From Amoebidium appalachense (taxonomy: Eukaryota > Protista > Ichthyosporea): a stretch of DNA of 64,000 nucleotides. A program made the translations under genes and the position numbers. The stretch spans positions 1,054,001 to 1,118,000 of the forward strand of contig CAVNZM010000012.1 in NCBI GenBank assembly GCA_963693365.1, in the 5' to 3' direction. The notes under the pieces were generated by a model that saw nothing but the letters and a program-made list of their open reading frames with translations, had not been told where the DNA came from and made no database searches. Shown here piece after piece: positions 404 to 6,400 of this stretch (positions are counted from its first letter, which is position 1; each line of letters begins with the position of its first letter).

Positions 404-3400
404 TCACCGCGCCGGTGTATATTTGAAAGGCAATATCACAATCGTCGGCTTGGATGCTTTCTCTGTCTGTGCATGTAGACCCAAACATCAGCAACACATA
501 TGGTGTTAAAATAAAAACGTGTTCGTTTGTACAATACTTAAAAGGTGATAAAGCTTATTTTTCCACCGTCGAGAAATGAGATCGGGTACATACGTGTGTG
601 TGCATGTGTGGGAGCGGGGTGAGCTTGCTTTTTATTTTCTTTTTGTTTTTACTTTATTTTGGGGGGGGGAGAAGGGGGGTTGGGGGGGGGGGGGGGGGGG
701 GATTATGTGAAAGAATACGATTTACACATTCACGACGGGTGGATGGGTGGTGGTGGTGGTGGTGGTGGTGTGTGTGTGTGTGTGTGTGTGTGTGTGTGTG
801 TGTGTGTGTGTGTGTGTGTGTGTGTGTGTGTGTGTGTGTGTGTGTGTGTGTGTGTGTGTGTGTGTGTGTGTGTGTGTGTGTGTGTGTGTGTGTGTGTGTG
901 TGTGTGTGTGTGTGTGTGTGTGTGTGTGTGTGTGTGTGTGTGTGTGTGTGTGTGTGTGTTGTTTGTTTGTTTTTTGTTTTTTTTTGTTTTTTTTTTTTTT
1001 TTTTTTTTTGGGGGGGGGGGGGGGGGGGTTGAGGTGTGTACTTTTTCTTAACCAATTCTCCGGTCATTTTTCCTTCCTTTTCTTTTTTTCTTTCTTTCTT
1101 TCCCCTTTCTTTTTCTCCTTTATATTCTCCAGTCTTTTTGGGGGGGAGACTAGAAGCAGATACCTGCATGAACTCGAGGACTTTCTCCATGGCAGCACTT
1201 GGGCCATTTGCCATTCCGTAGGTGTAGACGAGAGCATTATGCGTGTACATGTCCTGCTTGAAGCCCTTCTCTTGCATCAGCGCACGTATGCTCTCTGCTT
1301 GCTGGATGTCTCCCATCTGTGTTTGTACGTGTGTGTGGTGGGTGGGTAAGGTGGGGCAGGCCCGGGGGATTGGGGGGGGGGGGGGGGGGGGGGGGGGGGG
1401 GGGGGGGGGGGGGGGGGAGGGGGGGGGGGGAGGGTAAGTGTGTGTGAGTGATGGTGTATGTGATGGTGTGTGATGGTGCGTGTGTGTGTGTGTGCCCGCG
1501 CATGTGTTTGTGTGTGTGTGTGTGTGTGTGCGTGCATGTGCGTGTGTGTGTGCGTGTGCGTGTGCGTGTGCGTGTGCGTGTGCGTGTGTGCGTGTGCGTG
1601 TGTGTGTGTGTGTGTGTGTGTGTGTGTGTGTGTGTGTGTGCGTGTTGTGTGTGTTTGTGTGTGTGTGTGTGAGTGTGTGCGTGCGCACGTGTTCATGTGC
1701 GAGTGTTTTCAGGAGAGTTGATTCAGTTGAAGGGTTGGTCAACCGAGGGGCATTAGACGTGAGGAAAGGGACAATGGCCCTTTTTTTTTGGGGGGGGGGG
1801 GGGGGGGAAGAGGGGGGGGGAGAGGGGGGGGGGGGGGGGGTTGAATGCGTCAAAAAGTACGAAGTACACAAGAACAAACGGATAACACGATGCAGAATGC
1901 AAGCCATACATAAAGAGTATGCATAATAAGCAGAGCCCATCCTCAGGGGGGGCCCACGTCATCCACAGTACCCGAGTTTCGACCTATTCCCCTCGTTAAC
2001 GAAACCCAACTCAGATACTGTTTCACTTGAACATGAGTAGGTCACCCGGGGGGGAGAAGTGTATGGGGGTGGGGTTGGGGGGTTGCAAGGCACGGAGCCT
2101 CAGGTCTTTGTTGTGATCTGATTAACCGGCCATGATGCAATCTAAAAGAAAAACCTTAAATTAGCCATTGTAAGATATATTTCATAAAATTAGAAAAAAT
2201 AGGATTTTCCGCTTCGCTCCGGTAGTTACTATTAAAGTCAAATCGTCAACCGATCAATCGTATAAGAAAACCGTTTGTGTATGTGCCTGTGTGTGTGTGT
2301 GTGTGTGCGTGTGGGTGTGTGTGTGTGTGTGTGTGTGGGTGCTTCCTGTGTGTGTGTGTGTGTGTGTGTGTGCGTGCGTGTGCGCGCATGTGTGTGTGCT
2401 CCACTACACTCACCCGTGCCACTGCCGACATCATGATGTTGCACGTGACGCTGTTGATCGTAATGTTGGAGTCCTGAGAAGTGCCCATTAGCCAAAAAAA
2501 GAAAACCGCCATTAGCCAAAAAAGGGATCGTAATTGCCCATTAGCCAAAAACGGATAATTGCCCATTAGCCAGAAATAGATCATTGTCCATTAGCCAAAA
2601 AAGAGATCATTGCCCATTAGCCCCCCCCCCCCCCCCCCCCCCCCCCCCCCTCCCCCCCCTCCCCCCCCCCCCAAAAAAAAAAAAAAAAAAGAAGAAGGGA
2701 ATATACAGGATGGCATTTACGGCAAACGGTTTGGGGGTCACATGGATTAGTCTGATCAAATTTCACTCAGCCGACAGAAAGATATCTGATGGGTTCTTTC
2801 GATTAAAACCCCATGTCGTAAACTCTAAGAAAAGAGTTCAGTGTGTTACCTGAGGACCATTGTACTAAAAACACCTATAAAAAAAAGTACGAGCAATGGT
2901 CATACGTGTTCTTCTTTTTCTCTTGTTCTTTCGTTCTTTTCTTTTCCTTTTTTTTTTTTTTTTTTTTTTTTTTTTTTTTTTGGGGGGGGGGGGGGGTTTA
3001 CATTTTTCATCATGTCGTAGATTTCGGACAGCTTCTGGTCAGTCGACCAACGGCAGAGGTCCAAAAGAATGTGGTAAGTCACACGGGTCCAGCGTATGCC
3101 TGTGTGTGTGTGTGTGTGTGTGTGTGTGTGTGTGTGTGTGGGTGTGTGGGTGGGTGGGTGGGTGGGTGGGTGGGTGGGTGTGGGGGTGTGGGGGGGGGGG
3201 GGGGGGGGGGTTTGAATGCTTCAAAAAGTACGAAGTACACAAGAACAAACGGATAACACGATGCAGAATGCAAGCCATACATGAAGAGTATGCATAATAA
3301 GCAGAGCTCATCCTCAGGGGGGCCCACGTCCTACACAGTACCCGAGTTTCGACCTATTCACTTCGTTAACGAAACCCAACTCAGATACTGTTTCACTTGA

Positions 3401-6400
3401 ACATGGGTAGGTCACCCGTCTTGATCAGAGACGAGCAGGGTTGCTTATGCAGGCAAGGGCAGTGGTGAAGGCCGGGGGGTAAGGTTGCAGCAGTAAGCAG
3501 AAGCAAGAAAAATATAGATAGGAACTCAGGAGACGGGGCTTCCAGGAAGCTCCCCCGTCGCTACCTAAGTCGATACTTCCCTGGCTAACATACTACACCA
3601 GCGGAAAAGAATTAAGTCCCGAAGGCCGCAGAATTCGCAATCAGAGGGGAAAATATGAGATTTGACCCACGCCGCAGGGTAGTAACACGCTTACTAGGGC
3701 GGAACTTTAAGGGGGGATGTCTGTGTGTGCGTGTGAGCGTGTTTGTGTGGGTGTGGGTGGGTGGGTAGGTGGGTGGGTGAGTGGGTGGGTGGGTGTGGGT
3801 GGGTGGGTGGGTGGGTGTGTGTGTGTGTGTGTGTGTGTGTGTGTGTGTGTGTGTGTGTGTGTGTGTGTGTGTGTGTGTGTGTGTGTGTGTGTGTGTGTGT
3901 GTGTGTGTGTGTGTGTGTGTGTGTGTGTGTGTGTGTGTGTGTGTGTGTGGGTGTGTGCGTGTGTGTATGTGTGGGTGTGTGAGTGTGTGTAGGTGTGTGT
4001 GTGGGTGCGTGTGTGGGTGGGTGGGTGGGTGCGTGTGTGTGTGTGTGTGTGTGTGTGTGTGTTTGTATGCAGCGTGTCTGATGTGCATGAGCAAGCGTGT
4101 GCATACATGTATACGCCTGGGGTTGTGACATACATATGCATATTTATATCCAGATACATGTCTGTGTGGTTGAGGGAAGTTGGGTTCGTATGCATGTTGC
4201 ATTAGAAAATGGGACAACCGAGGCGAAAGAAAGATTGATAAAAACCCAGCAAACCCACACAGAAACCAGATACACCCGCAGGCAAGCGGACAATAAAACA
4301 GTGCCGCGTGTTGGTTTGTTTTTGCTTTTCTTTCCTTCTCTTTCTTTTCTTTTGTCATTCTTCCTTTCTTTTCTTTTCTTTTCTTTCTTTCTTTCTTTCT
4401 TTCTTTTTTTTTTTTTTTTTTTTTTGGGGGGGGGGGGGGGGGGGGGGGGATTTGACATGCACATACAGACGTAGACCAGTGTGGAACAGGGTATATAAAG
4501 TTCACCAGGATGATGCCAAATACCGTTGGTTTCTAATGGTGGGCTCTCCTATTGTGTATACGGCCAAAAGGGTGGAAACATGAAAGTAAGCCAATAGAAC
4601 CACAAGAACAAGCTCGAAACAGAAACCAAAGAAAACCTGCACGCAGGCCAGATAATACATGAACAGAGCCACCATCCCCTTTGCAAAATGGGATAAAAAA
4701 GGCTGCCCGAAGATGGTTGCAGGAAGGAAGGGGGGGGGGGGGGGGGGGGGGGGGGGGGGGGGGGGGGGATACCGCGAGCCTTCATTTCCCTTGCAGCATC
4801 CCAAGCAGCTTGGAAGTCCCTCCCCTTGTGGCAGGCAGTTAGGAACCAACGGTACGCGGCATCATCTCGGTACACTTTATCCTGTGGGGAAAGGGTTAAA
4901 GGTGGGAAAAGGTGCAATGATGGTAAAATGAAAAGGGAATGGGTAAAAAAGCGGAACAGGCAGAGGGTTGTTATTATCACGATAGACTTTATTTCTGTGA
5001 AGAGAGGATTAAAGATTGGGGGCGAGAGATATAATTTAAAGATTGGGGGCGAGAGATAAGATTTAAAGATTGAGGGCGAGAGATAGAATTCAAAGATTGG
5101 GGGCGAGAGATAGAATTTAAAGATTAAGGGCGAGAGGTAGAATGGTGGTAGGAAGAAAAAGAAATGGGTTGTTCTTATCGCGGTAGACTTTATCCTACGA
5201 AAAAAGGGTTAAAGGTGGTAAGAGGTGGTATGAAGGTAGGAAGGGTTGTTCTTATCACGGTAGAGTTAAAAAACAGTGAGTTGTTTGGGTTCTATCGTGG
5301 AATGTGAAGAAATGAAATGCGGTCATAAGAGACCAAAAGTTGGCAGGGTGAAGACGGAATGAGTTATTTGCATTCGAACCCGGGGAATGGGGCATGGGAG
5401 AAGGGGGACGTCGGGGGAGGGGGGGGGGGGGCAGAACATGGTTTTTTTTTTACTATATGTATATTTTAAAAATAATATAGTTAGAAAAATACCTTCTCCA
5501 TAATGGCCATGGTTTGACGACACCCCTCCACATCCCCTGCACGTGCCAGACTTTCCAAATATAGAAGGTAGGTGTCCCTGCTGGGGGTGAGCCCCCGGCT
5601 CCTCATTTCTTCCATGATCTTCCGTGCCTCCTCCACGTTGTCGTTTTGCTTGGCAACCTTTAATATATTTATTTAATATTAGAACGTCATTGGTTAGTGT
5701 TATTGACATAGTGGACTAGAGAGGTTCTACGAAAAACTCACTCGGTAAAGCAAAATGCAATTATGCAGAATCCCCCCCCCCCCCCCCCCCCCCCCCCCCC
5801 CCCCCCCCCCCCCCCCCCCCCCCCCCCCCCCCCCCCCCCCCCCCCCAAAAAAAAAAAAAAAAAAAAAAAGGAGAAGAAGAAGAAGAAGAAGAAGAAGAAG
5901 AAAAAGAAGAAGAAAGAGAAAAGAAACACACACGTCCACACACGTCCACGTCAGTGCAGTGTTCTGTTTGTGCTTCACCCCATCCCCTACTCCGAAACCC
6001 CCCCCCCCCCCCCCCCTTCTCCCCCTAAACACATGCACCGGGACCATTCATATACACACACACACCCTGATGCTCCTCCCTCTCCCTCTCTCTCTCTCCA
6101 TCTCTCTCTCTCTCTCTCTCTCTCCCCCCCCCCCCCCCCCCCTCCCCCTCCCCCTTTTTTTTTCAAACAGAACAGAACACATACGAAACAAGAAAAGGAA
6201 AAAGATAGCACGACCCACCTTTATAAGGTAATTGAAACTGATAGTTGAAGCAGCAATACCCTCCCTCTCCATCTCACTAATAATATCCTTAACCGCTTGC
6301 GGGTCATAGGCACCCACGCTGAGCATTAGGAGTTGGTACGTAGCCTGTGGAATGGTGATAGGTGGGTGGGTTATTTGCGCGCGTGTGTGTGTGTGTGTGT

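Follow-up and report, generated by a model that had tools for sequence, protein, structure and literature searches.

Two groups of described RNAs come closest to the element reported here. Hammerhead ribozymes of type SGC present their conserved blocks in the order cleavage site (S), GAAA (G) and CUGAnGA (C); according to the main text of Eckert et al. 2023 (PMC10085705), these RNAs are found solely in metatranscriptomes and in no genome of a known organism, CUGAnGA and its stem II strand are assumed to be inseparable, type CSG is known from two natural sequences, and the word "kink" does not occur. Penelope-like retroelements carry canonical hammerheads about 100-330 nt from the 3' end, whose cut triplets include GUU and whose core boxes include CUGAGGA, and in which an additional base between A9 and G10.1 is the rule; processing and circularisation of tandem transcripts have been proposed for them (sections of PMC4209133 available to us). 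In hammerheads at large, one or two bases inserted between A9 and G10.1 are known, and an extra U raises the activity of a viroid hammerhead (excerpts of PMC3705267 and PMC1636495). The Naiad and Chlamys groups of Penelope-like elements lack canonical hammerheads according to their authors, who flagged only "HHR_core" and "HHR_half_core" strings; the lack in Naiads had served to argue that ribozymes are mere passengers of Penelope elements, and no ichthyosporean appears in the main text of that work (PMC8557442, used here as main text and part of the supplement). Here we describe a 64,000-nt stretch of the ichthyosporean Amoebidium appalachense (contig CAVNZM010000012.1 of assembly GCA_963693365.1, positions 1,054,001 to 1,118,000; hereafter the window, in whose numbering all positions are given) that holds two families of retroelement-like repeats, A and B, whose minus-strand RNA probably forms a hammerhead with its strands in rearranged order. 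The carriers are likely Penelope-like elements of the Naiad/Chlamys group; the fold would occupy their 3' repeat, and we predict that it cuts the RNA of its own element after a GUU triplet.

Six copies in the window retain most or all of the core. The box CUGAGGA (C3 U4 G5 A6 N7 G8 A9) directly follows the 3' strand of stem I in five of the six, and is decayed in the remaining one, copy C; G12 A13 A14 stands between stems II and III, together with the A15.1-U16.1 and G10.1-C11.1 pairs, also in 5/6 copies, and the NUH triplet between stems III and I is GUU in all six. Stems I, II, III and a further helix, Y, each show one compensatory double change between A and B, while the unpaired core positions are identical in the two families (12/12, versus 6/21 in the linker). 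Variant tables of public runs (thresholds of 5% for A and 2% for B) show CUGAGGA, GAAAC and the cut triplet to be free of substitutions, and the only variant at 3309-3317 is a one-base insertion in the adjacent run. Exact retention of a core amid freely covarying helices, seen across unrelated families, is what catalysis predicts. A descriptor requiring the S-G-C order together with stems I to III matches four window copies, all on the minus strand, compared to a mean of 0.03 in 100 shuffles of the window and to 1 and 0 of 20,000 core shuffles; of 45 viral loci picked solely because they match the sequence pattern, none passes it.

The unusual feature is the origin of stem II. Its 3' strand is predicted to bind a strand upstream of the core with -7.3 to -9.4 kcal/mol (5-6 bp beginning with G10.1-C11.1), versus -2.2 to -3.5 kcal/mol for the strand that follows the core. 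In an intact block C the stem II strand comes 0-2 nt after CUGAnGA; here the best partner lies upstream, and we did not file the family as type SGC proper because the stem II strand does not follow CUGAnGA. The strand after the core pairs with a segment just ahead of a hairpin, Q, forming helix P, with the closing stem beyond.

An original prediction, made from the letters of the window, had proposed a selected, pseudoknotted minus-strand RNA of about 150 nt in these repeats, either an unrecognised ribozyme or a site recognised by a reverse transcriptase (RT), and both the fold and this choice of options proved sound. All helices that it named are present, and, as it held, the differences between A and B keep the pairing: 10 differing positions fall in 6 of 23 core pairs and break none (between A1 and B1, four pairs are changed on both sides and two on one side). 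With 10 substitutions placed at random, all pairs were kept in 101 of 200,000 trials and at least four double changes arose in 3 of 200,000. Across the six copies 96.2% of cells pair, a figure reached by 0/500 shuffles and compared to 28-46% in slid controls, although the sequences are related and the figure is therefore not a probability. The minus strand is confirmed by 23/23 core pairs in both A1 and A3; plus-strand RNA, on which 20 and 19 of the 23 form, was rejected. Folding z-scores of the single strands are modest (-2.4 and -2.8). Other parts of the prediction needed correction. The long and crossing helices are real, but each had been drawn one pair too long, into the catalytic core (U17-A14, and a pair with G12), and the seventh pair of the crossing helix in B depends on a minority letter at 62112, where about 99% of the depth is A. 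Both the hairpin CCCGTCT/AGACGAG and the closing stem exist but are invariant between A and B, which is conservation and not covariation. The core is indeed shared by two families; these are, however, related, with 3' ends in common, and core copies number six rather than two.

The prediction had listed no stem I and had seen no match to a hammerhead. Stem I is present in both families, and C3-A9 as CUGAGGA, C11.1-G12-A13-A14-A15.1, U16.1-U17 and stems I, II and III were all found; the match becomes visible when the strands are read in S-G-C order and stem II is completed by the upstream strand. The Rfam scan that had been suggested returned no family at cut-off at these sites, and the window-wide scan at gathering thresholds gave only a tRNA (Table 1). 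In a relaxed scan the sole ribozyme match was Hammerhead_1 (RF00163; 15.2 bits with E 1.6, where the cut-off is 34). Twister, hairpin and HDV-like topologies were rejected since their strand order and conserved letters do not fit.

Read 5' to 3', the first half of the RNA consists of one strand of P, hairpin Q, the stem II 5' strand, helix Y, stem III and the cut site, and the second half of the stem I 5' strand, the linker hairpin, the stem II 3' strand, GAAA, stem III, Y, the stem I 3' strand, CUGAGGA and P. Stem III has 13 bp in A1 and 9 bp in B1; stem II changes from U-A in A to C-G in B and C; helix Y has 7 bp plus an extension, its double change falling at pair 5 (U-G in A, A-U in B). 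Helix P can be drawn with 3 bp or in an alternative 5-bp register with GCUCG. According to public-run reads A1 carries minority letters, A at 3308 as well as those at 3331 and 3333, and due to these it is not the best representative of its family. A kink-turn is recognised by a 3-nt bulge, then tandem G-A/A-G pairs, between two helices. UCA-AGU-GA facing GA-UGA in A2 and A3, and UCA-GUU-GA facing GA-UGA in B1 and B2, match this pattern and suggest a kink-turn between stem III and Y; the pattern is lost in A1 and C. Self-complementary tips occur in the linker hairpin (3360-3371, 62053-62070 and 12482-12487, three families with differing sequences) and in the loop of Q (3421-3428), and these palindromic tips and the UGAUCA loop are possible RNA dimerisation signals.

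Table 1. Features of the window; RNA elements are described in the sense of the minus-strand transcript.
Feature	Position	Strand	Remarks
Copy A1 (family A)	3211..3710	-	5'-truncated retroelement 3' end; RNA ends in C-run (G-run on +)
Copy A2	14896..about 15550	-	longest A copy; core C3 15002; predicted cut 15064/15063
Copy A3	1842..2048	-	core C3 1946; truncated within hairpin Q
Copy B1 (family B)	61875..62251	-	orientation as A1; C-run 3' end
Copy B2	16218..16579	-	core C3 16336; stem III with one break
Copy C	12335..12536	-	third subfamily or old copy; core decayed: U4->C, A13->G, stem I broken
Short B copy	14365..14512	-	truncated in helix Y
Stubs resembling short B copy	8475-8621; 53341-53433		
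Other stubs	8368-8458; about 7350-7443		
Rewired hammerhead (predicted), A1	3297..3448	-	closing stem P0: 3442-3448 with 3297-3303
Rewired hammerhead (predicted), B1	61989..62148	-	C3 62009, G12 62043, U17 62075, G10.1 62111
Helix P, 3' strand	3307..3309	-	GGG in most copies; partner CCC 3438-3440
Core box CUGAGGA	3311..3317	-	C3 3317, A9 3311; extra U after A9 at 3310
Stem I, 3' strand (CCC)	3318..3320	-	partner GGG 3375-3377
Stem I in B1	62071-62074 with 62010-62013	-	GGAG/CUCC; double change versus A at pair 3
Helix Y, 3' strand	3323..3329	-	partner 3401-3407; connects far ends of stems I and II
Kink-turn (putative), non-bulged strand	3330..3334	-	G-GA-UGA in A2, A3 and most reads; bulged strand 3392-3400
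Stem III, 3' strand	3335..3347	-	from A15.1 (3347); partner 3379-3391 from U16.1 (3379)
C11.1 and G12-A13-A14	3348..3351	-	C11.1 3351; G12-A13-A14 3350-3348
Stem II, 3' strand	3351..3356	-	crossing helix; partner is upstream strand 3408-3413 (G10.1 3413)
Linker hairpin (variable)	3357..3374	-	joins stem I to stem II; palindromic tip (6-12 nt) in 6/6 copies
Predicted cut	3378/3377 (A1); 62075/62074 (B1)	-	3' of U17, triplet GUU; by analogy with hammerheads
Hairpin Q	3415..3435	-	loop palindrome UGAUCA; ends 1-2 nt ahead of G10.1
Open-frame end in A2	15254-15553	-	100 codons; no real homolog
LINE	42188-46586	+	seemingly intact; ORF1 403 codons, ORF2 1078 codons with RT; (CA)n end
Tc5/pogo-type transposase DNA-binding domain fragments	41002-41762	-	
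Second repeat family	25600-26052; 60690-61148	-	ends in (CA)n; almost invariant 190-nt block of long helices
Tandem duplication	47212-47740		about 265 bp, 98% identity
PPR-protein exons	5484-6752	-	
PTEN C2-domain protein exons	21635-22783	-	
tRNA gene	18339-18411	-	anticodon UUU

The same wiring recurs elsewhere. Judged by eye, seven of 20 Naiad 3' ends viewed from the PMC8557442 supplement carry it in full (Bfor, Amil, Movir-2, Plae, Dst-4, Obim and Ovul, where only the Plae header was seen and the other names follow table order), in a sample biased by motif words and by the authors' flags. A pattern scan of metagenome contigs for the wiring gave an estimated 310 or so loci, of which 120 were listed, and at least 40 pass the helix test (40/120 listed). 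Among these 40 listed loci, 39 lie in animal-like DNA and belong to a single repeat family, which by eye matches Naiad_Amil, and one belongs to another family; the other 80 fail the core test, and 11 loci viewed by eye comprised eight unrelated sequences, two damaged copies of the animal family and one that had passed. Of the passing loci, 30 were aligned; the other 10 were left out, their upstream part being truncated, replaced or not picked. The aligned loci pair in 94.8% of cells, and two subfamilies differ by a double change in each of P, Q, Y and stem I. No pair at all of a canonical stem II can form in 35/40 listed passing loci, and in two more it is 1 bp long, while helix P has 4-10 bp in 31 of the 32 measurable listed loci, and it is with P that the strand after the core covaries. 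Blastn gave no match between the window core and the listed metagenome loci. In the relatives P abuts Q and Q abuts G10.1, so that P and Q would stack with a nick that unites A9 and G10.1. The cut-site base in families bearing the wiring varies (U, A, C) within the NUH rule, and U at 17 is also found in Hydra-clade elements. The animal-DNA examples have linkers of 1-6 nt that form no hairpin.

Some further 3' ends touch on this comparison. One metagenome locus (L055:2524-2613, minus strand) represents a further family, with the S-G-C order and an upstream stem II strand, and is followed by a tRNA-like stretch; its contig ends before P and Q. In the part of the PMC8557442 supplement seen, the 3' ends of Naiad-3_Nbra, Naiad_Hpol, Naiad_Smim and Physarum Pp1/Pp2 have the blocks in C-S-G order by eye, and the Physarum elements contain a GT-AG stretch between core box and GAAA that may be an intron. 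The putative window kink-turn is opposite in orientation to that in the octopus Naiads seen there, also by eye.

In the mechanism that we propose, an end-to-end stack of P and Q would contain a nick, and there A9, as the strand enters P, would lie beside G10.1, as the strand leaves Q, in place of a direct A9-G10.1 link. The kink-turn would fold stem III back, and helix Y would then clamp the far ends of stems I and II, as a counterpart of the loop I-II contact in ordinary hammerheads. Transcripts of partial tandems would contain the fold twice, and cuts after U17 at both would release an RNA of unit length with one half of the fold at each end. With about 30-35 bp in common (P, II, Y and III), these halves would remain annealed, favouring re-ligation into a circle, and a circular template could yield cDNA of more than unit length and hence new partial tandems. 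Cutting would probably be slow or protein-assisted, because the genomic copies derive from uncut RNA. The boldest form of this proposal is that a seventh, four-strand hammerhead architecture, in which the split block is splinted by two stacked helices, is the missing Naiad ribozyme, is pre-animal given its presence in an ichthyosporean, and acts as a self-closing clasp that cuts tandems and circularises RT templates; we offer it tentatively, as an idea that has somewhat more against it than for it.

Several observations weigh against a self-cleaving hammerhead at this locus. Self-cleavage is a prediction from sequence, and the split between CUGAnGA and stem II has no tested precedent in the literature searched. 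Stem I has just 3-4 bp, and the cut site is GUU. The U (in A) or UU (in the majority of B) ahead of G10.1 could pair with G12/A13 and so block the core, and a rival helix, GCUCGUC/GAUGGGC, which buries G8-A9, is in the energy minimum for A. P and Q are invariant between A and B, P having two possible registers, and each compensatory change is a single evolutionary event. Ten 5' junctions were located in the window, and the predicted cut coincides with none of them. No Penelope-type RT was found in the window (202 frames scanned with Pfam), for the A2 frame or beside the animal-DNA loci, in searches that were not seeded with a Naiad or Chlamys protein. None of the 19 Chlamys and Physarum 3' ends seen in the supplement of PMC8557442 carries the wiring, despite the Chlamys-like (C)n target, and circle formation is a prediction from the wiring. 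In the Anolis Penelope element, moreover, the one tested in vitro, cleavage by the hammerhead requires the protein, and insertion can do without it, catalytic mutants still inserting and uncut RNA being the main template (portion of PMC11167929 available to us).

That precedent bears on one alternative, in which a hammerhead-derived fold does not cut unaided and persists because the RT of the element uses it for binding or packaging, its core letters being conserved for shape or protein contact. The window copies retain 167-200 nt past the cut and none begins at it, and the recurrent truncation points in Q and Y are such as stalls on a stable fold would give. Nevertheless, exact C3-G8, G5, A6, A9, G12-A14, A15.1-U16.1, a non-G at 17 and G10.1-C11.1 are kept across unrelated families with covarying helices, which argues for catalysis, and we consider a purely binding role unlikely. 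Chance likeness to a hammerhead, in a repeat preserved by recent common descent, deserves hardly any credence: only two well-kept families lie in the window and none has an Rfam match above cut-off, but the shuffle and decoy controls and the same wiring in sequence-unrelated repeats largely refute it.

Two other alternatives accept cutting and draw the active form differently. The RNA might be an ordinary type-SGC hammerhead, with its active stem II formed by the strand after the core across a 2-nt insertion (GGCU/GGUC) and the upstream strand serving as an off-switch. Such an in-line stem II can be drawn with 4 bp in A2 and A3 and 6 bp in B1 and B2, and insertions at the A9-G10.1 link are known, as said above. 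However, it contains 2-3 G-U pairs, is 5-6 kcal/mol weaker than the upstream pairing, and is absent in A1 and in 37/40 listed animal-DNA loci, in which the strand after the core covaries with P instead; we regard this arrangement as improbable. More improbable still would be a dimer, in which two RNAs join through their palindromes (the UGAUCA loop of Q and the linker tip) and swap strands to build active cores. Palindromic linker tips of three different sequences in 6/6 copies, the Q loop palindrome in A and B, a linker self-duplex of about -13 to -16 kcal/mol, and a dimer model proposed for minimal Penelope hammerheads (in the sections of PMC4209133 cited above) all speak for it, but the short, hairpin-free linkers of the animal examples do not, and a monomer already provides all three stems. 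The rearranged, self-cleaving hammerhead is our preferred reading and a likely one.

The repeats themselves behave as retroelement ends. All window copies have a single orientation, with a common left end on the plus strand and differing right ends, as expected if a minus-strand RNA is copied beginning at its 3' end; 5' truncation is frequent and the 3' end is fixed. The left end is a G-run followed by TTTGAATG in 7/7 printed left ends, one of them with TTGAATG, and G-runs on the plus strand flank copies at both ends, which fits the Naiad/Chlamys habit of inserting into tracts of (C)n, (CA)n or (TA)n. The plus strand of the window has 106 G-runs versus 42 C-runs, and the single orientation of copies probably follows from this G-rich plus strand. 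The host exons detected (PPR, PTEN C2) are likewise on the minus strand, in the same sense as the repeats. Family A is found in 6,823 and 4,606 contigs, and family B in 11,809 and 5,810, of the public runs X1 and X4 respectively, runs presumed to be of RNA whose contigs cannot reveal strand, ends or level; that they list neither a depth step nor a cluster of ends at the cut site is therefore uninformative. Contigs of public runs extend family A past 3709 and family B past 62253 and include head-to-tail joints of the repeats, with a recurring sequence past the 3' end for family B (two runs) and family A (one contig). The window has a tandem stub pair at 8368-8621, with no complete element there. 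A covariance model (R1) detected no further family in the window, and exact-pattern scans for the A/B sequence matched no locus in either viral or metagenome contigs.

Seven of the 10 located 5' junctions sit at three recurrent sites. The recurrent junctions (2048, 12536, 8621, 14512, 53433, 16579 and 62251) each have CCC no more than 5 nt before the target G-run, a context that is otherwise rare (9/127 G positions in A, 4/96 in B). They may reflect pairing of GGG in the template with the C-strand of the target, or RT stalls.

The carriers are most like Naiad/Chlamys Penelope-like elements and are likely of that class, which we infer because the partner enzyme was not found. Naiad and Chlamys elements are defined by an open reading frame (ORF) with N-terminal GIY-YIG, a CxC motif and a telomerase-like RT, and by partial tandems forming pseudo-long terminal repeats (pseudo-LTRs) with a 30-40 bp tail. 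The open-frame end in A2 gave no match other than three to unrelated repeat proteins, and no atlas match above 0.79. A long interspersed nuclear element (LINE) in the window, 98% identical in the searched region to a protein labelled Amoebidium parasiticum, an ichthyosporean, was considered as the mobilising partner and rejected, as it ends in (CA)n and, when the window was compared with itself, matched neither A nor B. A second repeat family has a crossing pair CCTAAGG/CCTTAGG, no CUGAnGA and no Rfam match above cut-off; it is a candidate structured RNA of a (CA)n-targeting Chlamys-like element. Table 1 also lists transposase fragments and a tandem duplication.

Should the cutting be true, the stated rule that the three hammerhead blocks cannot be interrupted would be broken, S-G-C-ordered hammerheads would have their first genomic home within the literature searched, and the report that Naiads lack hammerheads would be overturned. 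The purpose of Penelope ribozymes, and a circular-RNA origin of partial tandems, could then be studied directly on short RNAs transcribed in vitro. A useful tool for circularising RNA could also come from a hammerhead with products that remain locked to each other. Standard ribozyme searches miss this class.

Compared to known systems, the carriers share 5' truncation, microsatellite or (C)n targeting and possibly partial tandems with Naiad and Chlamys elements as described in the available parts of PMC8557442, and differ in that no RT or GIY-YIG gene was found for A or B; the (C)n families of Chlamys have 3' ends of the form AA-CCCCC (3/7 C. reinhardtii ends seen), and the window repeats end in a C-run. 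The type I hammerheads of Penelope pseudo-LTRs and retrozymes (portions of PMC4209133, bioRxiv 10.64898/2026.07.22.740005 and PMC11167929) likewise lie in the 3' repeat, the canonical Penelope ones about as far from the 3' end as the window core, and they have the extra base between A9 and G10.1, the conserved G10.1-C11.1 pair and palindromic parts seen in the window RNA. They are nested three-way junctions, whereas in the window RNA two stems cross, the core strand is split, and three further helices and a putative kink-turn are added. The Rfam model Hammerhead_1 aligns weakly to stem II and GAAAC at 3333-3421 (minus strand) and cannot place CUGAnGA downstream. A split-core or Penelope-borne non-circular hammerhead was not described in the literature searched, which lay outside subscription papers and the supplements of PMC10085705, and PMC13725137, in the part available, merely cites such variants. 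The nearest relatives are the type-SGC hammerheads (HRIMA-1 and variants; main text of PMC10085705), with the same block order of site, GAAA and CUGAnGA, all core letters, a short link from stem I to stem II, and a helix joining the other sides of I and II (Y here) that runs into the far end of III. In those RNAs block C is intact, whereas in the window RNA it is split and would be splinted by P and Q; type-SGC RNAs have been shown to cut, whereas cutting by the window RNA, which belongs to a high-copy genomic repeat, is predicted. We would like to note that the fold, judged by its core letters and helices, is a real hammerhead variant with predicted activity, and that the novelty of this locus lies in two covarying families in a non-animal host.

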